IMG/VR virus record: IMGVR_UViG_3300021185_002720
Span: 1 to 64,000 of that record
Reading direction: 5' to 3' (one strand)
From: a virus
DNA length: 64,000 nucleotides
Shown here piece after piece: positions 3,112 through 11,813 of this stretch. Position 1 is the first letter of the stretch, and each line of letters starts with the position of its first letter. The notes beneath the pieces were generated by a model. It was given only the letters and a program-made list of their open reading frames with translations, was not told the DNA's origin and made no database searches. A program made the position numbers and the translations under genes.

Positions 3112-4302
3112 ATGGCGAATTTTACGGACTCGAGAATAAATCAAACCTACCAACGAATTGTACAGGTAGACGGCGCAGTTATACAAGACGGTAAAGGAAA
3201 TGTACTTTCCGGATCAATGGGAGATCTTACAGTTAGTGGATCTTTAAACATTATAGGTCATACTAACGTTTCTGCATCACTTAGTAGATTAGATCACTTT
3301 AGTTCTTCCATAGACGATACATTTGCTACTGACGCCGATGTAACAGCAGTATCTTCAAGAGTAACTAATTTAGAAAACTTTTCTAGTTCGTTAGATGCTA
3401 CTTATGCTACTGACGCTCAATTAGATTTAGTTTCAAGTTCATTAGCTACAGAGACAGCACAACTTTTAAACTTTAGTGCTTCGTTAGATGCTACATTTGC
3501 AACAGATGCTCAATTAACAACAGCAGTAGAAGCTCTTAATGCATCAACTAGTTCTTTAGCACATAAAAATGCAATATCAGGAGCATTTGATATAACCTCA
3601 GCTTCTTTAGCAAACCAGATAGCTTCTTTAGATAGTGAATATGCATCAGATACACAATTAACAAGCTTATCATCTTCAGCAGCTGATACCTACTTATCTA
3701 AAGCAGGAAAAATTATTATAAGTAGTAGTGTTCAACTATTTAATGTTTGTGACCCTAGATACGGTTTTGACCCTTATGATGCTAGATATGCAAATAGCGG
3801 TTCTTACACAGCATTAAGTGGATCATTTTTACAATTAAGCGCATCACTTCAATCAGATTATGTTCTTAGTAGTTCTTTTGCTTTATTAAGTTCTTCTTTA
3901 CAAGATGACTTTTTAGGAGAAGTAGAATGGCAAATAGCATCAGCTTCATTAAGGAATGATATCTCTTATGATTCTTCTAGAGTAAGTTTATTAGAAAGTA
4001 AGAACTTAATTAGTAGTAGTACGCAAATATTTGATATAGCAGATTCTAGGTATGGGTTTATTCCTTATGATGCTAGGTATGCTAATATAAACAGTATTAC
4101 TGGATCATTTGCTTTAGAAGCTGCTAAAATAACAGCTTTACAATCAGTTGTTAGCGCTTCAGCTTTAATTAATTTAACTCCTAGTAACCCATTACCAAGT
4201 AATGTAAGTACAGGATCATTAGCTGTTACTGGAAGCACTTTAGCTTTCTATGACGGTAATAATTGGAAAGTAGTAATAACAGGATCAACTTTACCTTTAT
4301 AA
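3112..4302 (+). CDS. Ser/Ala-rich repetitive protein, probably virion fibre/structural
   Basis: Repeats FSSSLDATYATDAQL (3-4 copies) and ISSSxQxFxxxDxRYGFxPYDARYAN (2 copies); C-terminal LAFYDGNNWK typical of fibre ends; preceded by a TATTTATA box. Confidence 0.55.
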   Translation: MANFTDSRINQTYQRIVQVDGAVIQDGKGNVLSGSMGDLTVSGSLNIIGHTNVSASLSRLDHFSSSIDDTFATDADVTAVSSRVTNLENFSSSLDATYATDAQLDLVSSSLATETAQLLNFSASLDATFATDAQLTTAVEALNASTSSLAHKNAISGAFDITSASLANQIASLDSEYASDTQLTSLSSSAADTYLSKAGKIIISSSVQLFNVCDPRYGFDPYDARYANSGSYTALSGSFLQLSASLQSDYVLSSSFALLSSSLQDDFLGEVEWQIASASLRNDISYDSSRVSLLESKNLISSSTQIFDIADSRYGFIPYDARYANINSITGSFALEAAKITALQSVVSASALINLTPSNPLPSNVSTGSLAVTGSTLAFYDGNNWKVVITGSTLPL

Positions 4303-4336
4303 AGTTGCTTCTTAAATAAATTATTCTTATATTAGA
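4303..4336 (+). promoter_or_regulatory. Bacteroidota sigma-A-like promoter GTTG-N17-TCTTATATT
   Basis: AGTTGCTTCTTAAATAAATTATTCTTATATTAG; one of 14 copies with near-constant spacing, resembling the -33 TTTG / -7 TAnnTTTG consensus. Confidence 0.75.
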
Positions 4337-4349
4337 TATATATGACTAT

Positions 4350-4377
4350 AGTGTCGTAGCACCACTTTAAAAACACG
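4350..4377 (+). ncRNA. preQ1-I riboswitch-like aptamer upstream of the ORF4381-queD-queE unit
   Basis: AGTG-TCGTAGCAC-CACT-TTAAAAACACG: 4-bp stem, UCGUAG..AC loop, A-rich tail ending 3 nt before the ATG; resembles the T. tengcongensis preQ1-I aptamer; covarying copy at 6766. Confidence 0.75.
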
Positions 4378-4380
4378 AAT

Positions 4381-4623
4381 ATGGCAAAATTAGAAAAAAA
4401 GGTTATGGAAGAACTCTATAATAGAGACGAAAGAGAGAATACCTCTTCTCTTGAGATTAATGGTCAGAAAGTACCAGATCCAAAATTACACCAAACAATT
4501 TCATTTATTAAATCAGCTATTAGACTAGGAGCATGCGCTTTTGGTTTTTTTGGTTTTTATGAGATTGGCTTTATCAGTTTATTTTTAGCTGAAATAGTTG
4601 GAATAGGGGAAGAATTAGTTTAA
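4381..4623 (+). CDS. small membrane protein (C-terminal hydrophobic hairpin)
   Basis: ...PDPKLHQTISFIKSAIRLGACAFGFFGFYEIGFISLFLAEIVGIGEELV; first gene after the aptamer. Confidence 0.75.
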   Translation: MAKLEKKVMEELYNRDERENTSSLEINGQKVPDPKLHQTISFIKSAIRLGACAFGFFGFYEIGFISLFLAEIVGIGEELV

Positions 4624-4632
4624 ATTAAAGTT

Positions 4633-5103
4633 ATGGGAAAATTTCAATCAACAAAAGTATTTGACGGTTTTAGTACCTGTTTCCGTCAATGGAAAGCAGA
4701 AACTACTCATTGTAGGTTTCTACACGGCTATGGAGTCTCTTTTAAATTATGGTTTGAAGGAGAATTAGATCATAGAAACTGGGTATGGGACTTTGGCGGT
4801 ATGAAAAGAGCTCAAGCAAAAATAGACGGTATGTCACCTAAAGCTTGGTTCGATTATATGTTTGACCATACAGTTATTATCGCTAAAGATGATCCACAAT
4901 TAGCAGGATACTTTACTAAATTAGAAAGAAACGGAACTATCCAACTTAGAGTTATAGATGCAGTTGGAGCTGAAAAGTTCGCTGAGTTTCTGTATAATAA
5001 AATTAATCCATTTTTGGAAGAAGAAACAAAAGGTAGAGTAAAATTATCTAAAGTAGAATTCAGAGAACACGGTAAAAATTCAGCAATATATGAGCCTAGG
5101 TAG
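4633..5103 (+). CDS. queD: 6-carboxy-5,6,7,8-tetrahydropterin synthase QueD
   Basis: HCRFLHGY, WVWDFG, FDHT, GAEKFAE, E-x(4)-SA; T-fold PTPS family, adjacent to queE. Confidence 0.9.
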   Translation: MGKFQSTKVFDGFSTCFRQWKAETTHCRFLHGYGVSFKLWFEGELDHRNWVWDFGGMKRAQAKIDGMSPKAWFDYMFDHTVIIAKDDPQLAGYFTKLERNGTIQLRVIDAVGAEKFAEFLYNKINPFLEEETKGRVKLSKVEFREHGKNSAIYEPR

Positions 5104-5869
5104 AATAGAAGATTACGATAAAAACTTACCAATAGTAGAAATCTATACTGCTGTTCAATCTGAAGGTTCTAGAGCAGGGTATCCTACTGTAGTTATTAGA
5201 ACTACTGGGTGTACTCATAGGTGTTACTTTGGAGAAGGAGGATGGTGTGATAGCTGGTATACTTCTATACATCCAGAAAAAGGTAAGTTTACTTTTAACG
5301 ATATTATTAAAGCATATGATGATAATCCTCATATATCAGAAATGATGTTAACTGGAGGTAGCCCGTCAATGCATAAAAAGCTTGTTAACGAATTAACACA
5401 TTTAGCAAATGAAAGGAATATTTTCATTACTATGGAAAACGAAGGAAGCCATTTCCTCCCTACTGATTATCCTATCAATTTACTTAGTATTTCTCCTAAA
5501 TTTAGCAATAGCGTTCCCGTTCTGGGTGTTGTTACTCCTGAAGGAAAAATTACAGACGAGAAAATGATAAAGCAGCATAATAAGTTTAGACTTAATTACC
5601 CTGCTATAAAAGAAAGTATTGCATACCATTCAGATTTTCATTTAAAACCTGTATGGGATGGAAAAGACGAAAAAGCATTAGCAGAAATTATGGATTGTAT
5701 CGAGCAGTTAGATGCTCCTAAAGATAAGGTATGGTTTATGCCTGCTGGTGATGATAGAGAGTCATTATTTAAATCTTATCCAGTTATGTTTGATTGGGTT
5801 AGAGATAATGGTTATAGATTAACTTGGAGACCGCATATTATTGCGTTTGAAGATCAAAGAGAAGTTTAA
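5090..5869 (+). CDS. queE: 7-carboxy-7-deazaguanine synthase QueE (radical SAM)
   Basis: [10 protein letters not shown]...[40 protein letters not shown]. Confidence 0.92.
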
Positions 5870-6177
5870 TGAGTTTTATAATTGGATCACCTTGTGTTAG
5901 TACTTGCGATACAGCCTGTGTAGCAGTATGTCCTGTAGATTGTATACATGGACCTATAGACATTACAGGAGCAGGTGCAGAAGTAGCAAATATGTCTAAA
6001 GAAGAACTTGTTGGAAAAAGCTTGTATATAAACCCTGAAGAATGTATTGATTGTGGAGCTTGTGTTCCGGAATGCCCAGTAGAAGCAATATTCGATAGTG
6101 AAGAAGAAGCGATTGAAGCAGGAGAAAAAGAAGCAGTTATTAATAATTATAAATTTTTTGGATTAAATTATGAATGA
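5869..6177 (+). CDS. 4Fe-4S dicluster ferredoxin
   Basis: [18 protein letters not shown] and [21 protein letters not shown]. Confidence 0.93.
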
Positions 6178-6343
6178 GATAGAATTTGTACAGTGGTTAA
6201 GAGGATTTGCAGAAGGAGTACACCATTACAATATTACCCCTAAACAATGGGATCATATGAAAGAGGTTTTGAAAAAGGTAGGGACGTCTTCATCAGCAGA
6301 TTATACTACCGGTAATTGGACCTTAAATCACACATGGGAGTAA
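6170..6343 (+). CDS. small hypothetical protein (57 aa)
   Basis: [34 protein letters not shown]...; fills the gap with overlaps at both ends. Confidence 0.65.
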
Positions 6344-6738
6344 AAAAAGTTTATTATAGTTGGGAGGATGTTTATAAACTCCTCGATAACATTCACGCAC
6401 AAACAAAAGGAGAAATAGATTACGTAACAGGAATTCCTAGAGGAGGTACTATCTTAGCAATAATGTATTCACATCGTTTTGATATTCCTTACTTTGAATA
6501 TAAAAGTAATCACTACCCTAGATTGTTAATTATAGATGATATAGCAGATAGTGGAGAGACAATATTAAAATGGAGAGAAGAAATGTTTAATCCTAAGTTT
6601 GCTACTCTACATTACAAAACATCCTCGAAAGCAAAACCAGAATATTTCGCAAAAGAGATACCTGATGATTACGGTTGGGTTGTTTACCCTTGGGAAAAAG
6701 AAACTTCCAAAACTATTCAAGATTATTTGGATGTTTAA
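6334..6738 (+). CDS. purine phosphoribosyltransferase (Gpt/xanthine-guanine PRTase-like)
   Basis: YYSWEDV, GIPRGG, LLIIDDIADSGET (PRPP loop), WVVYPWE; ATG at 6334. Confidence 0.85.
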   Translation: MGVKKVYYSWEDVYKLLDNIHAQTKGEIDYVTGIPRGGTILAIMYSHRFDIPYFEYKSNHYPRLLIIDDIADSGETILKWREEMFNPKFATLHYKTSSKAKPEYFAKEIPDDYGWVVYPWEKETSKTIQDYLDV

Positions 6739-6757
6739 AATAAATTTCTTATCTTTA
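6726..6757 (+). promoter_or_regulatory. Bacteroidota-type promoter upstream of folE
   Basis: TTTG-N17-TCTTATCTTT with the same spacing as the other copies. Confidence 0.7.
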
Positions 6758-6765
6758 ATTAAGAA

Positions 6766-6793
6766 TGAGTCGTAGAACCTCAGTAAAAACAAA
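6766..6793 (+). ncRNA. preQ1-I riboswitch-like aptamer upstream of folE
   Basis: TGAG-TCGTAGAAC-CTCA-GTAAAAACAAA; same loop and tail as 4350-4377 with compensatory stem changes; 9 nt before the folE ATG. Confidence 0.78.
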
Positions 6794-6802
6794 TTATATA
6801 TT

Positions 6803-7516
6803 ATGCCTAAAAAGTTTATAGAAGGAACAGAATTAGTAAGAGCCGGATTCGCTAACGGTATTTCAACTCAACTAGCGGAAAAACAAAAGACAGAAGGACC
6901 AGAAGCTAGACTTACTGATCATGAAAAGCAAGTTATTATAGAAAGAGCAGCAGAAGCATATGCAAACTTTTTAACTGCATTAGGATGTGACTATAAAGAC
7001 GATCCTAACTCTGCAGATACTCCTTTCAGAGTAGCTAAAGCTTATGTTAATGATTTATGGGCTGGAAGATATAGCCCTTTAGACCGTATTACAGCATTTC
7101 CTTCTGATGGATATGATGGTATAGTACAAGAGAGTAACATACCAGTAACGTCTATGTGTTCGCATCACCATCAAGCTATTAGAGGTACAGTAAGTATAGC
7201 TTATATAGCATCAGAAGATGGTAAGGTAGTAGGGTTATCTAAACTAAATAGAATAGTAGAGCAATTCGGTAGAAGAGGAGCTATTCAAGAGCAGTTAACT
7301 GTTGCTATTCATAATGCAGTAGATAAGATATGCGAAGGTAATTTAGGAGTTGCTGTTCAGGTTAATGCAACTCATGCATGTGTATCATGTAGAGGTGTAA
7401 AGCATGGAGGAGCTTCTATGCAGACAGCTAAACTTACTGGAGCCTTTCTAAACGAAGATTCAGCAAAAGCAGAGTTTTACAAAAATATAGAATTAGCAGA
7501 GAAATGCAGTCATTAG
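6803..7516 (+). CDS. folE: GTP cyclohydrolase I
   Basis: DTPFRVAKAY, SMCSHH, VVGLSKLNR, RRGAIQEQLT, HACVSCRGV. Confidence 0.96.
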   Translation: MPKKFIEGTELVRAGFANGISTQLAEKQKTEGPEARLTDHEKQVIIERAAEAYANFLTALGCDYKDDPNSADTPFRVAKAYVNDLWAGRYSPLDRITAFPSDGYDGIVQESNIPVTSMCSHHHQAIRGTVSIAYIASEDGKVVGLSKLNRIVEQFGRRGAIQEQLTVAIHNAVDKICEGNLGVAVQVNATHACVSCRGVKHGGASMQTAKLTGAFLNEDSAKAEFYKNIELAEKCSH

Positions 7517-7986
7517 AACACGACGAAAGACCTTGGGGTTGTTACGATGTATTATTAGATACTGACTATACTAAAGTTAAGTTAATATCTGTATCTCCTG
7601 GTGAAAGATTATCCTACCAGTCTCATAAACATAGAAAAGAGCAATGGATATTAGTCAAAGGAGTTCTAACAGTTATTAGAGAAGGAGAAGAACATACATT
7701 AGATCACCCTGGTGATTCCATCACTATCCCTAGAGGGAATAAACATAGAGCATGGAATAAGACAGATAAAATTGCACAGTTTGTAGAAGTACAAATTGGA
7801 ACTTATTTCGGAGAAGATGATATAGTTAGATATGAAGATGATTATATGAGATCAGATGAAGTACAGGAGTTTTTAGAATTTGTAGATAAACCAGGCCCTT
7901 GGCCGGAAGAAGATGATAAAATCCATACTATTGGAGGTTTATCAATGCCGAAAGAAAACACAAATAAATTAAATAAAAATGGGTAA
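7504..7986 (+). CDS. cupin, mannose-6-phosphate isomerase type II C-terminal-like
   Basis: ERPWG, LSYQSHKHRKEQW, KHRAWN, EVQIGTYFGEDDIVRYED. Confidence 0.88.
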   Translation: MQSLEHDERPWGCYDVLLDTDYTKVKLISVSPGERLSYQSHKHRKEQWILVKGVLTVIREGEEHTLDHPGDSITIPRGNKHRAWNKTDKIAQFVEVQIGTYFGEDDIVRYEDDYMRSDEVQEFLEFVDKPGPWPEEDDKIHTIGGLSMPKENTNKLNKNG

Positions 7987-8506
7987 ACAACTATCACTAT
8001 TTCCAAACGATGCAGATAATTACTGGGTTAACGATTACGTACCCTTTGTTACTGAAGTAGAGACATTTAACGAAACATTTGGAAAACCAAACAATTATGA
8101 ACCGACTATACCAGAAAAAAAAGAGTGGCAATTCGTCTACGATTTTATCCTTGAAGAACTCGAAGAATATAGAGAAGCTTGCGAAAGGGGCGACATTGTG
8201 GAAGTTTTGGACGCTTTGTGCGACATTGCTTATGTTTCCCTTGGGAACGGTACTATGTTACACGGCCTTAAAGATAAGATATGGCCAGCATATCAAGAGG
8301 TACAAGCTTCTAATATGTCAAAAGCTTGTGAAACTGAAGAAGAAGCCATACAGAGTGTCAGCCAAAGAAGTAAGGAGCAAGGTGAGGCCTGTCATTTTGA
8401 GAAAGTTGCGGAGGGAAGGTATATTGTCTACCGATCCAGAGATATGAAAGTAATGAAATCTATTAATTACTTTAGACCGGACCTTAAACAGTTCTTTAAT
8501 GATTAA
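7979..8506 (+). CDS. MazG-like (all-alpha) nucleoside triphosphate pyrophosphohydrolase
   Basis: FILEELEEY...EVLDALCDIAYV...EVQASNMSK...KVMKS; N-terminal QLSLF. Confidence 0.85.
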   Translation: MGKQLSLFPNDADNYWVNDYVPFVTEVETFNETFGKPNNYEPTIPEKKEWQFVYDFILEELEEYREACERGDIVEVLDALCDIAYVSLGNGTMLHGLKDKIWPAYQEVQASNMSKACETEEEAIQSVSQRSKEQGEACHFEKVAEGRYIVYRSRDMKVMKSINYFRPDLKQFFND

Positions 8507-8714
8507 TTTAGAAAAACATAAAGTTACTATTGACGGCGAGGACTACTTACCGTATAATATAGTTAAAAAAGCATATTCTGAAATTTATGAATATGATAAG
8601 AATCAAAAGAAACTTGATCATGCATTAGAACTTATTGATAACTCAGTAAGAACTATGTCAACACTTTTAAATACTACAAATATAGATGATAAAGATAGCA
8701 CACGAGAGCCCTAA
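8499..8714 (+). CDS. hypothetical protein
   Basis: ORF overlapping both neighbours; no motif recognised. Confidence 0.6.
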   Translation: MINLEKHKVTIDGEDYLPYNIVKKAYSEIYEYDKNQKKLDHALELIDNSVRTMSTLLNTTNIDDKDSTREP

Positions 8715-9489
8715 AGGTATTTTTGAAGAAGTACAAAGATTTACAGATTACGATTATGCATTAGTACACTTGTTTGAAGAAGATGAAGAATACTTACGTC
8801 AATTTAAACAAGCAGCGCTAAAAGGTAGAGAAATAATTTTAGATAACTCTATTTTTGAATTAGAAGAGGCTTTCGATGCAGATAAATTTAACAAGTGGGT
8901 TAACGAACTTAAACCTACATGGTATATAGTTCCTGATGCTTTGGAAGATGCTACTAAAACTTGCGATCAAATGGAAGACTGGAATAATAAAGGTCTTGGT
9001 TATAAAGGTAGTGGTAAGATAGGAGTAGTTCAAGGTAAAACTTATGATGAAATAGTAGATTGTTATAACTATATGAATAAATCAGCAGATGTAGACATGA
9101 TTGCTATCTCTTTTGATTATTCGTATTATACACATTCTGTTCCTCATGCTAACAAGTATGTTAGCTGGATGCTAGGACGTGTTAAGCTACTAGGAGACTT
9201 ACTTAGAGACGGTGTAATAAATACTACAAAGCCTCATCACTTACTAGGTTGTAGTTTACCTCAAGAATTTAGTTTCTATAAGCATTCCGATTACGATTGG
9301 ATATATTCACTTGATACTTCAAATCCTGTTGTACACGGTATTAAAGGTATAACATATAGTTCAGATGGACTATGGTCTAAAGAAAGACAGAAGTTACATG
9401 AATTAATAAATTCAGATATTGACGAGCATCAGTTAGGAACTATTAGAAATAATATTCAAAAATTTAAATGGTACACAAATGGGAACTAA
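8686..9489 (+). CDS. dpdA: divergent DpdA / tRNA-guanine-transglycosylase-like TIM barrel (putative DNA 7-deazaguanine transglycosylase)
   Basis: IILDNSIFE, IVPD, GVVQG, HHLLGC, SLDTS align with TGT/DpdA motifs (DSG, QG, HxLG, DS); lies within the que cluster. Confidence 0.7.
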   Translation: MIKIAHESPKGIFEEVQRFTDYDYALVHLFEEDEEYLRQFKQAALKGREIILDNSIFELEEAFDADKFNKWVNELKPTWYIVPDALEDATKTCDQMEDWNNKGLGYKGSGKIGVVQGKTYDEIVDCYNYMNKSADVDMIAISFDYSYYTHSVPHANKYVSWMLGRVKLLGDLLRDGVINTTKPHHLLGCSLPQEFSFYKHSDYDWIYSLDTSNPVVHGIKGITYSSDGLWSKERQKLHELINSDIDEHQLGTIRNNIQKFKWYTNGN

Positions 9490-10015
9490 AGTATGGATAG
9501 CATTTTTTAGTCAGACAGGTGCTGAAATAGCTGATATAGCAGAATCACTAGGTAGATGGCCAGATAGGATAATTACTAATGATAGACCTGAACATCTTAG
9601 AACTATTGATGAAAGAATAGAAAAGAAAGGTTACTTCACTATGAGTAATAAACCCTCGTTAGATGAATATGAAGATACCTTAGTATACTTTCCAGAAGCA
9701 TTGGTCACTTTACATGGATGGCTTAGAATAATGCCTCCTGAGATTTGTGAAAGATTTAATATAATTAATGGTCACCCAGGCCTTATAACCGAGTATCCAG
9801 AGCTTAAAGGTAAAGATCCTCAAATAAGAGCTTTTGAAGGAAAGTACCCAGTTGTTGGCACAGTATTACATAGAGTAGTAGCAGGTGTAGATGAAGGAAA
9901 AGTAATTTCTGAAGAGAGATTTAATAATTTTAATTTGGAGCTTAATGATTTATTTCGTATCTTAAGAGATAGAGGGTTATATATGTGGTGTAACTTCCTA
10001 AAAACGGTTTTATGA
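9479..10015 (+). CDS. dpdN: PurN-like formyltransferase (putative preQ1 formyltransferase, DpdN-like)
   Basis: FFSQTG, LHGWLRIM, INGHPG, ELKGKDP, GTVLHRVVAGVDEG = GAR transformylase motifs; adjacent to the dpdA-like gene. Confidence 0.75.
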   Translation: MGTKVWIAFFSQTGAEIADIAESLGRWPDRIITNDRPEHLRTIDERIEKKGYFTMSNKPSLDEYEDTLVYFPEALVTLHGWLRIMPPEICERFNIINGHPGLITEYPELKGKDPQIRAFEGKYPVVGTVLHRVVAGVDEGKVISEERFNNFNLELNDLFRILRDRGLYMWCNFLKTVL

Positions 10016-10533
10016 TAAAAAGAATAGCATTAGTAGGAGCAAGTAGTACAGGTAAGACTACTGTTTATGAACTACTTAAAAATAAATTACCTAAGTATGA
10101 GTTTGTTAATGAATCTACTAGAACAGTAGGTAGTTACGGATTTCCTATTAATGAAGAAGGAACCGATGCTACTCAATTAGCTATTAGTAGTTTTCATTTG
10201 GAAGCTTTACTTCAACCTTATAACTTAGTATTAGATAGATGTTATATGGATGTTTTAGTTTACTCTAGATTTATGAAAGGAGTAACTACATATACGAACG
10301 ATTATATAGAAGATACTTGGAATAGAATAAAGAGCGAATATACTCATTATGTTTACTTCCCTATTGAATTCGATTCAGTAGACGATGGAGTTAGAAGTGT
10401 AGATGAACAATGGAGAAAGGAAATAGATAGTGAGTTTAAAGCTGTTCTTGAAGGTGTACGTCAACCTTATTTGACGATAACTGGTTCCCCTATGCAAAGG
10501 GTAGAACAAATTTTAGATTTTATAAATGTTTAG
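10012..10533 (+). CDS. P-loop nucleotide kinase-like ATPase (AAA_28/NadR-type)
   Basis: GASSTGKTT, VLDRCYMD, DDGVR. Confidence 0.8.
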   Translation: MIKRIALVGASSTGKTTVYELLKNKLPKYEFVNESTRTVGSYGFPINEEGTDATQLAISSFHLEALLQPYNLVLDRCYMDVLVYSRFMKGVTTYTNDYIEDTWNRIKSEYTHYVYFPIEFDSVDDGVRSVDEQWRKEIDSEFKAVLEGVRQPYLTITGSPMQRVEQILDFINV

Positions 10534-10897
10534 ATACGGAGCAAAATTATTAAGAGTAGTTGATGGTGACACAGCAGATGTTATGATCGACTTAGGATTC
10601 AGTACTTGGGTTAAAGCAAGGCTTAGATTCAAAGGTGTAGATACCTGGGAAAAGAGAACTAGAAATTTAGAAGAAAAAGCTAAAGGTATATTAGCTTCTG
10701 AATTTACAAAAAAACACTTAGAGCTAAATGATGGTAAGTTTATCATTCAGTCCTACGGTAAAGGTAAGTATGGAAGAGTACTTGCAGAGATTTTTATTGA
10801 TCTCGATGGAGAAGAAACCTCTTTAAATAAACTATTAGTAGAAAACGGTCACGCTTATGTTTACGAAGGTGGCAAAAAACAATTATTTAAAGGATAA
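10526..10897 (+). CDS. thermonuclease (SNase) family nuclease
   Basis: RVVDGDT, RLRFKGVDTWE, GKYGRVLA, LNKLLVENGHA. Confidence 0.9.
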   Translation: MFRYGAKLLRVVDGDTADVMIDLGFSTWVKARLRFKGVDTWEKRTRNLEEKAKGILASEFTKKHLELNDGKFIIQSYGKGKYGRVLAEIFIDLDGEETSLNKLLVENGHAYVYEGGKKQLFKG

Positions 10898-10901
10898 AAA
10901 T

Positions 10902-11813
10902 ATGGCAGAAGTTAAAAATTATCAAGAAGTAGTAGACATTGCGTCTAAACACTTAGGAAAAGTAGGCGGTGATGGGTATAAAGATACCTACGCACCAGAG
11001 TTATTAGTTAAAGTACCTCGTTATTTGAATAGAGAAGGATACGGATTAACTGATAAAGATTTTGTAGGAGTAGATACTTGGAACTGTTACGAAGTATCAG
11101 CTATTACTAAAAAAGGATTACCTGTAGCAGGTATGTTAAAAATTGTATGTCCTTCAGATTCTGAATATCACGTAGAATCTAAGTCTATTAAGTTGTACCT
11201 AAATTCTTTTAATATGACTAGATTAGGAGAAACTTCTGTAGATTGTATTTTAGAGATTGAAGAAAGAGTAAAAACTGATTTAGATAAGTTACTTGAAACT
11301 AATACTACTGTAAGCTTTTACACTGATTTAGACGACGGTAAAGAATTATCTTTTGAAGGATATGAAGATTTAGGAGATATAGTAGATTTAGATCAAATAG
11401 ATTTTACAGCTTTTCAGTCTGATGCTTCTCAATTACTTATAGAAGATACCTCAGAAACCCCTAAAGAAGTAAAATTAAGATCTAACTTATTAAGATCTAA
11501 CTGTAGAGTAACTAATCAACCAGATTGGGGTGATGTATTTATTAGAATGAACGGTAAAAATTTACCTGCAGTAGATTCGGTAGCAAAATATATCGTATCT
11601 CATAGAACCGTTAGTCACTTTCATGAAGAGATTTGCGAAATGGTATTTAAGCATTTAATGGATGCATATCAACCTGATGATTTAATGGTATCATGCTTAT
11701 ATACTAGAAGAGGAGGATTAGATATAAATCCTATTAGAGCAACTCACTCAAGGTTCATTCCTGACTTCTTTACTGATACAGATTATAGAATTCAAAAAAC
11801 ATTAAGACAGTAA
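10902..11813 (+). CDS. queF: NADPH-dependent preQ0 reductase QueF (bimodular type II)
   Basis: DTWNCYEVS, VESKSIKLYLNSF (QueF motif), LRSNCRVTNQPDWG (catalytic Cys), FHEEICE, YTRRGGLDINP; likely start ATG 10902. Confidence 0.95.
   Translation: MAEVKNYQEVVDIASKHLGKVGGDGYKDTYAPELLVKVPRYLNREGYGLTDKDFVGVDTWNCYEVSAITKKGLPVAGMLKIVCPSDSEYHVESKSIKLYLNSFNMTRLGETSVDCILEIEERVKTDLDKLLETNTTVSFYTDLDDGKELSFEGYEDLGDIVDLDQIDFTAFQSDASQLLIEDTSETPKEVKLRSNLLRSNCRVTNQPDWGDVFIRMNGKNLPAVDSVAKYIVSHRTVSHFHEEICEMVFKHLMDAYQPDDLMVSCLYTRRGGLDINPIRATHSRFIPDFFTDTDYRIQKTLRQ

Follow-up and report, generated by a model that had tools for sequence, protein, structure and literature searches.

How could a marine phage that may replace the guanine of its DNA with a 7-deazaguanine base adjust the supply of that base? 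The question is raised by a stretch of 64,000 nucleotides (nt) of the virus record IMGVR_UViG_3300021185_002720, which is 72,148 nt long as a whole. We refer to this stretch as the window, and all phage coordinates for this record are given in it. Two operons in the window carry genes for 7-deazaguanine synthesis, and each is headed by a short leader element before its first start codon. We suggest that both elements are compact riboswitches similar to type II of the preQ1-I class, and we put the probability of this reading at roughly three in four.

The two leader elements and their relatives in phages

Mapped onto the aptamer of T. tengcongensis (Tte; sequence taken from PMC10639078), the two elements are divided into two helices (P1 and P2) and three loops (L1 to L3) as follows.

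4350-4377, + strand: putative aptamer 1, AGTG-TCGTAGCAC-CACT-TTAAAAA-CACG, with ATG at 4381; covariance model score 57.6 bits
4350-4353 with 4363-4366, + strand: P1 of aptamer 1
4354-4359, + strand: L1 and 5' strand of P2 of aptamer 1, UCGUAG
4360-4362, + strand: L2 of aptamer 1, CAC, with the putative specificity C at 4362
4367-4373, + strand: A-rich L3 of aptamer 1
4374-4377, + strand: 3' strand of P2 of aptamer 1, CACG
6766-6793, + strand: putative aptamer 2, TGAG-TCGTAGAAC-CTCA-GTAAAAA-CAAA, with ATG at 6803; covariance model score 46.3 bits
6766-6769 with 6779-6782, + strand: P1 of aptamer 2
6770-6775, + strand: UCGUAG of aptamer 2
6776-6778, + strand: L2 of aptamer 2, AAC, with the putative specificity C at 6778
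6783-6789, + strand: L3 of aptamer 2
6790-6793, + strand: tail of aptamer 2, CAAA

As RNA, copy 1 has the stem AGUG/CACU, the loop UCGUAGCAC, the linker UUAAAAA and the tail CACG, and copy 2 has the stem UGAG/CUCA, the loop UCGUAGAAC, the linker GUAAAAA and the tail CAAA. Between the two stems, two base pairs are exchanged in a compensatory way (A-U to U-A and U-A to A-U), G-C closes both, and the gap to the start codon is 3 nt in copy 1 and 9 nt in copy 2. The sequences, coordinates, start-codon gaps and compensatory stems reported in an earlier note on this DNA are all present as written. The window has two occurrences of TCGTAGNACN5TAAAAACA, a pattern that appears in 0 of 100 dinucleotide-preserving shuffles. 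No third full copy was found in the window, even when one or three mismatches were allowed, and a covariance model made from relatives of the two elements (R1) matches only copies 1 and 2 there. In the whole record the next-best R1 match scores 14.7 bits (E = 0.69). Thus, the earlier statement that the window holds no other full copy is upheld, and it is valid for all 72,148 nt.

The exact loop and tail were found in at least 118 stretches of IMG/VR by a scan that leaves the 5' arm of the stem unconstrained. Among the matches listed, 71 of 82 unique 90-nt contexts have all four stem pairs, three have three pairs and eight have two or fewer; the chance of full pairing is 0.54% for random 4-mers at the same loci. 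The recurrence of the motif with a paired stem is not due to chance. In 93 distinct aligned instances the first P1 pair is A-U in 50, U-A in 15, C-G in 14 and G-C in 14, the second is G-C in 78, C-G in 14 and A-U in 1, the third is U-A in 74 and A-U in 19, and the closing pair is G-C in all 93. Covariation is therefore seen in three of the four P1 pairs. These 93 instances were pre-selected for a full stem, so the percentage paired is circular, while the pair types are unaffected. The same helix is predicted unaided by RNAalifold, and there are six stem types in phages and one in bacteria. Loci were also fetched by homology to FolE (80 loci, 70-100% amino-acid identity), and the motif is present in 58 of them: the folE leader carries it in 56, the queD side in 23, and both places in 21. 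Stem covariation and conservation upstream of homologous phage queD and folE genes had been named in the earlier note as checks on its proposal. Both are found across the IMG/VR relatives, and nearly all of the comparative checks that it named turned out favourably.

At least three stem pairs are present in 106 unique instances, and the next gene is a homolog of QueD, QueE, FolE or orf80 (the first gene behind aptamer 1) in 97 of these. The remaining nine consist of five that meet the end of the locus within 170 nt, three chance-like ones in unrelated coding DNA and one before FolE2. In this last case (L063:8332-8942) the aptamer copy, whose outer position is an A.G mismatch, lies upstream of a FolE2-type GTP cyclohydrolase (PF02649, 90.6 bits). 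FolE2 is the type IB GTP cyclohydrolase, which is not homologous to FolE and performs the same enzymatic step. Because it is found ahead of both FolE and FolE2, the aptamer tracks the enzymatic step and not the gene lineage. Across 95 phage contexts the distance from the tail C to the A of ATG is 3-14 nt, most often 7 nt (37/95). The motif is a conserved, structured leader element that is specific to 7-deazaguanine synthesis genes.

In the same 95 contexts the loop is UCGUAG(C/A/U)AC in 78, and the variants are UCACAG(C/U)AC (12), UUGAAGCAC (2), UCGGAGCAC (2) and UCGAAGAAC (1). The AC before the 3' strand of P1 is invariant in the alignment and is kept in all loop variants and in the loci fetched by homology, an invariance that is partly by construction since the fetching patterns demanded AC. 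The U after the 5' strand of P1, the loop G, and the C and A of the tail are invariant as well, and the C after the U is kept in at least 90% of instances, being replaced by U in two TTGAAG variants. The length of L3 varies between 5 and 9 nt and includes four to eight consecutive A, the commonest form being UUAAAAA (58/95). A search for loop variants with a base other than U at position 8 gave 116 stretches, nearly all of them chance matches in coding DNA, and the one real element was already known. When the 34-nt core was compared with phage isolates by blastn, the only similarities were chance ones, to the leader of a T4-like gene 32 and to satellite elements of Streptococcus.

P2 was examined in the register that joins loop position 8 to the third base 3' of the tail C, which we take to be the register of the Tte C9-G33 pair. 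When position 8 is U, the partner is A in 49 instances, G in 30, C in 5 and U in 13. When it is C, in the UCACAG variant, the partner is G in 10 of 10, and when it is G the partners are C and U (pairable in 2/2). Overall, 91 of 112 instances could pair in the Tte-like register, compared with 26/112 and 55/112 at the neighbouring offsets, and few of the changes are independent. These pairing counts favour a Tte-like P2, though the evidence is thin and the variants with A at position 8 misfit. A different register (U8-A26/G7-C27/C6-G28) was rejected, as it has no covariation.

Bacterial counterparts and likeness to preQ1-I riboswitches

A stricter pattern of 18 bases, run against 185,579 species genomes, was found in 36 stretches. 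Most of them (26/36) belong to Thalassospira-type Alphaproteobacteria and have the stem CCUG/CAGG with the same loop and tail. An open reading frame (ORF) starts 10-17 nt downstream, sharing its N-terminus with the QueC of L318 (Pfam, 203 bits), and QueD is next. In four Vibrio and two Marinomonas stretches the same element is followed by a hairpin (G+C-rich and with a U-run in some) and then by a second hairpin, QueD and QueE. This second hairpin (GUGCUGCAUUGUU...ACAAUGCAC) is conserved in the Gammaproteobacteria and lies directly before the queD start. Three of the 36 stretches lack the stem. The last one (L335) is a 5.9-kb contig of a metagenome-assembled genome binned as Verrucomicrobiales, with both phage-type aptamers and with an orf80-like gene and FolE arranged as in the phages; the binning is probably wrong and the contig of phage origin. 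Three example loci with a compact preQ1-like aptamer are given here.

L318:3043-3086: example bacterial locus
L333:3327-3430: example bacterial locus
L342:7203-7291: example bacterial locus

R1 matches 6 of 81 sampled Vibrionaceae genomes, and in each case the genes that follow are queD-queE, going by the similarity of their N-termini. In 151 sampled Bacteroidota genomes R1 gave no convincing copy; the sole match was judged unrelated, as it lacks the AC-C core and has no gene after it. One aptamer that is combined with a start codon in some lineages and with a terminator-like hairpin in others is a hallmark of riboswitches. Such dual expression platforms are hard to reconcile with an operator for a phage protein.

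In the Tte aptamer C15 pairs with the ligand, A29, U6 and the O6 of G5 in the G5-C16 pair contact it, and it stacks under G11 within the C7-G11-C30 triple (PMC8222354, PMC11625349). Compared residue by residue, both phage copies have identical counterparts of G5-C16, U6, C7, G11, A14-C15, A29 and C30. The likeness to the class I preQ1 aptamer, which the earlier note had proposed, is thus borne out, with all published Tte ligand contacts kept. The AC before the 3' strand of P1 is the hallmark of type II (PMC11625349). The type II aptamers of Tte and B. subtilis (Bsu) are H-type pseudoknots and share with the phage elements the G-C pair that closes P1, the U-C after its 5' strand, the AC with the specificity C and the A-rich L3; the tail C, which pairs with the loop G in them, could do so in the phage elements too. 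They are also placed in the leaders of queuosine-precursor genes, with the 3' end overlapping the initiation region.

Compared with Tte and Bsu, the phage elements are shorter. P1 has four pairs in the phage elements instead of five, L2 is one base shorter and has no counterpart of Tte U12, L3 has seven bases compared with nine in Tte, and the core is about 28 nt compared with 33-34 nt. P1 and L3 appear to have been shortened together, as an L3 that spans the groove would require. Furthermore, in contrast to Tte and Bsu, there is no Shine-Dalgarno sequence that the phage copies could bury, and they precede genes for DNA modification rather than tRNA modification. The suggestion of a minimal variant in the earlier note therefore holds, with a shorter P1, L2 and L3, and it extends to bacteria. 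Type III (E. coli) also has AC at the specificity base. This is the smallest and most stringent class I model, and its own features are a UU after the 5' strand of P1, a pyrimidine-rich stem-loop and an occluded AAGG (PMC11625349). In contrast, the phage motif has UC, the purine-rich loop GUAG and no AAGG. We favor a compact type II variant over a plain member of the class, because the curated model does not recognise the elements and the length of P1 differs.

Weighing the riboswitch reading

Several observations weigh against the riboswitch reading. A search with the Rfam preQ1-I model (RF00522, gathering threshold 39 bits), which the earlier note had named as a check, failed for both copies: neither the 141-nt nor the 41-nt slices gave a match at E<=10, and there was none at the gathering threshold. 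Its best matches in the whole record (11.9 bits) lie elsewhere. The model also gave no score on the bacterial counterparts in queC and queD leaders, and no match in the 81 Vibrionaceae genomes. Since these counterparts are missed and only one of 14 control genomes (B. subtilis) passes, the failure reflects the reach of the model more than the fold. The four-pair P1 is thermodynamically marginal, at -1.5 to -2.4 kcal/mol with z-scores that are not significant, and minimum-free-energy folding says little about so small a pseudoknot. (A pairing of 4352-4358 with the start-codon region was considered and dropped, as it relies on unconserved bases 3' of AUG.) In P2 the G-C and A positions are invariant and the covariation comes from about three independent changes; the stems in bacteria are invariant as well. 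When loop position 8 is A, its partners are A, A and G, so that 0 of 3 are pairable. The related Flavobacterium phage immuto has the aptamer before folE only, with none at the other leader, and the motif is absent from 11 FolE loci with a formyltransferase or QueF homolog; it is therefore dispensable. In addition, RNA-library contigs start at 4358, 4359 and 4374, positions within aptamer 1 or shortly behind it. Contig ends are not the same as transcript ends, and these starts are at most a weak hint of a transcript start inside the aptamer. The contigs of four metatranscriptome runs cover both leaders, the exact ones starting at 4359 and 4374 and one spanning 6705-6838, and in these four runs no RNA-library contig was found on 4134-4267.

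If the elements are riboswitches, preQ1 is the most likely ligand, and preQ0 is possible. The phage encodes a route to both preQ0 and preQ1 (QueC and QueF), and the bacterial copies sit on ordinary queuosine genes. The Cellulophaga phage phiST makes 7-deazaguanine without QueC or QueF (PMC10516641). The motif is absent at both phiST leaders, and absent too in a phiST-like IMG/VR locus. The correlation between motif and pathway type is weak, as the 11 formyltransferase/QueF loci lack the motif and the flanks are too short in 18 of the 58 loci that bear it. One can imagine the same fold acting as a riboswitch for another 7-deazapurine, such as preQ0, formyl-preQ1, 7-carboxy-7-deazaguanine or 7-deazaguanine, with a pocket retuned by the shorter L2, P1 and L3. 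This would suit the loss of one P1 pair and the absence of a base that corresponds to Tte U12. Ligand-switched variant riboswitches are known (PMC11625349), preQ0 affinity is 17-fold below that of preQ1 in this class (PMC8222354), and the DNA of a related isolate has formyl-preQ1 and not preQ1 (PMC10516641). However, all published preQ1 contacts are kept, among them that of the closing G, which reads the aminomethyl group through its O6, and the identical loop stands before queC and queD-queE in bacteria without nearby DNA-modification genes. We regard a different ligand as unlikely.

An alternative without any metabolite, in which a protein (for example a translational repressor of the phage or a factor that stabilises the RNA) recognises the hairpin and A-rich tail as an RNA operator, seems improbable to us. 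Phages do use RNA operators, with examples in T4, and the element is a small stem-loop. Yet it is found in Alpha- and Gammaproteobacteria before queC or queD-queE, with terminator-like hairpins in the latter class, it follows function (FolE and FolE2) and not gene family, and its conserved bases are the ligand-contact bases of preQ1-I. A DNA operator or promoter-proximal element for a transcription factor or a phage RNA polymerase would be in keeping with the inverted repeat of the stem and with its position 10-16 nt past a promoter-like box. We think this highly improbable, since the arms vary and stay complementary through six stem types in phages and one in bacteria, the loop is asymmetric and strand-specific, the spacing is bound to the start codon and bacterial copies precede terminators. 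The preQ1-I type II-like riboswitch is thus the reading that we carry forward.

Gene content, proposed mechanism and meaning

The genes behind the two elements and the promoter-like elements before them are as follows. Operon 1 is based on ORF calls, Pfam and PHROGs, and operon 2 on these and on synteny with phage immuto.

18-326, + strand: C-terminal fragment of QueC, truncated by the contig start (PF06508, 38.5 bits, profile positions 114-207)
577-650: tRNA gene (Rfam RF00005, 66.8 bits), between the QueC fragment and the following ORFs
4305-4307 (TTG), 20 nt, 4328-4333 (TATATT), + strand: promoter-like element 1, read from the sequence
4381-6738, + strand: operon 1
4381-4623, + strand: orf80 (80 aa), first gene behind aptamer 1
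4633-5103, + strand: QueD (PF01242)
5090-5869, + strand: QueE (radical SAM)
5869-6177, + strand: 4Fe-4S ferredoxin
6170-6343, + strand: orf57 (57 aa)
6316-6738, + strand: phosphoribosyltransferase
6727-6729 (TTG), 20 nt, 6750-6755 (TATCTT), + strand: promoter-like element 2, read from the sequence
6803-11813, + strand: operon 2
6803-7516, + strand: FolE (PF01227, 142.9 bits)
7504-7986, + strand: cupin
7979-8506, + strand: MazG-like pyrophosphohydrolase
8499-8714, + strand: orf71 (71 aa)
8686-9489, + strand: DpdA (267 aa), 75% identity to the annotated DpdA of Flavobacterium phage immuto
9479-10015, + strand: DpdN-like formyltransferase (PF00551)
10012-10533, + strand: kinase (AAA_28)
10526-10897, + strand: SNase-like nuclease
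10857-11813, + strand: QueF, two-domain

The QueC fragment rounds off the preQ0 pathway of the phage. The earlier note had placed ORF4381-queD-queE behind the first element and folE with dpdA, dpdN and queF behind the second, and the Pfam matches and the DpdA similarity agree with this. About 1.4 kb beyond operon 2 there is a family A DNA polymerase, with three small ORFs between. Among isolates, the nearest are the immuto phages, with 74% DNA identity across 62% of the query, and the Cellulophaga phages phiST, phi13:1 and phi19:2. Phage immuto has the gene order of the window at 70-74% DNA identity, and its aptamer before folE scores 50.4 bits with R1. In its description (PMC10516641), the guanine of immuto DNA is wholly replaced by 7-(formylamino)methyl-7-deazaguanine, that is formyl-preQ1, with 345,000 modified bases per million nucleotides, and the formyltransferase is proposed to be DpdN. 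Because of the immuto-like gene set and the formyl-preQ1 in immuto DNA, the window is taken to encode an immuto-type pathway. Phages of this group exchange every guanine of their DNA for a 7-deazaguanine derivative.

Among the other genes, orf80 is small, with a hydrophobic C-terminal half and no match to a Pfam or PHROG family, and a homolog lies upstream of QueD in most related contigs. The phosphoribosyltransferase (6316-6738), the MazG-like protein (7979-8506) and the nucleotide kinase (10012-10533) within the cluster are conserved, which hints that some steps take place on nucleotides and not on the free base alone. Contigs of two RNA-library runs join 4602 to 7868, omitting 3265 nt, with a shorter side of 22 letters; the junction may come from a relative with another gene order or from a repeat.

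The earlier note had placed each element just downstream of a promoter. A promoter-like box is present before both copies, 10-16 nt upstream of the aptamers, and its role as a promoter is suggested by its sequence. In 76 related leaders there is an enrichment of TTG about 21-23 nt ahead of a TAnnTT box, and TTG-N20-TAnnTT is presumably the -33/-7 promoter type of Bacteroidota. If the box is a promoter, the transcript would start a few bases upstream of the stem. Bacteroidota ribosomes ignore Shine-Dalgarno sequences. In F. johnsoniae, low structure and adenines at positions -3, -6, -12 and -13 favour initiation (PMC6847099). In copy 1, A-6 (4375) is within the P2 strand, A-12 (4369) opens the A-run of L3 and the aptamer ends at -4. 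In copy 2, A-12 (6791) is within the P2 strand and the A-run is at -18 to -14.

We propose that each element would fold into an H-type pseudoknot of about 28 nt, with a four-pair P1 closed by G-C. The loop would provide the 5' U and C, the stacking G and, after an A, the C for Watson-Crick specificity. The A-rich L3 would sit in the groove of P1, and the tail C would pair with the loop G to start P2. A rise in free preQ1, or possibly preQ0, would stabilise this pseudoknot. The locked form would remove the upstream adenines and bar the way into the initiation site with a folded structure. As the aptamers end 3 and 9 nt from the start codons and L3 and P2 hold the initiation adenines, translation of the first gene would therefore be blocked. 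As in all preQ1 switches known so far, the polarity would be that of an off-switch. The outcome would be feedback, across both operons, on the diversion of GTP into the 7-deazaguanine base that replaces guanine. In this way the phage probably gauges its own supply of modified base and throttles production accordingly.

In open-licence PMC and bioRxiv full text, we found no riboswitch in phage 7-deazaguanine clusters, which agrees with the claim of novelty in the earlier note; mention elsewhere is possible. The words "phage" and "viral" are absent from a 2024 review of preQ1 riboswitches (PMC11625349), and "riboswitch" and "regulat" are absent from the accessible sections of the immuto description (PMC10516641), where the control of the GTP flux is not dealt with. 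Rfam and R1 gave no match on the que clusters of BSP19, BCD7, phi38:2, VH7D, VpKK5, 9g, Ssp-JY38 and Typha. Streptococcus phage Dp-1 was rejected as a precedent, with no Rfam match in 50 kb.

Our verdict is that the elements represent a compact variant of the known preQ1-I class in a new biological setting. A bolder version, which we hold as doubtful, would make them the smallest natural riboswitch aptamer yet (about 28 nt, four-pair P1). In this version they would be a distinct compact subtype missed by current models and common to phages of marine Flavobacteriia and a few marine Proteobacteria. In the phages they would act without Shine-Dalgarno sequences, by drawing the upstream adenines of the initiation region into the fold, and feed back on the replacement of guanine in a whole genome. 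They would then be the first riboswitch over a DNA-modification pathway, and might be tuned to an intermediate other than preQ1.

If the riboswitch reading is true, the elements would add a shorter preQ1-I scaffold unseen by the Rfam model, and natural expression platforms in Bacteroidota, which lack Shine-Dalgarno sequences. The same aptamer would be used for translational control in the phages and Thalassospira and with a terminator-type platform in Vibrio and Marinomonas. The proposal is cheap to test, as the RNAs are shorter than 40 nt and the cultured relative immuto (Flavobacterium sp. LMO8) has one copy. Full replacement of guanine demands a very large diversion of GTP, and a metabolite-sensing RNA on both operons would explain how this flux is controlled.

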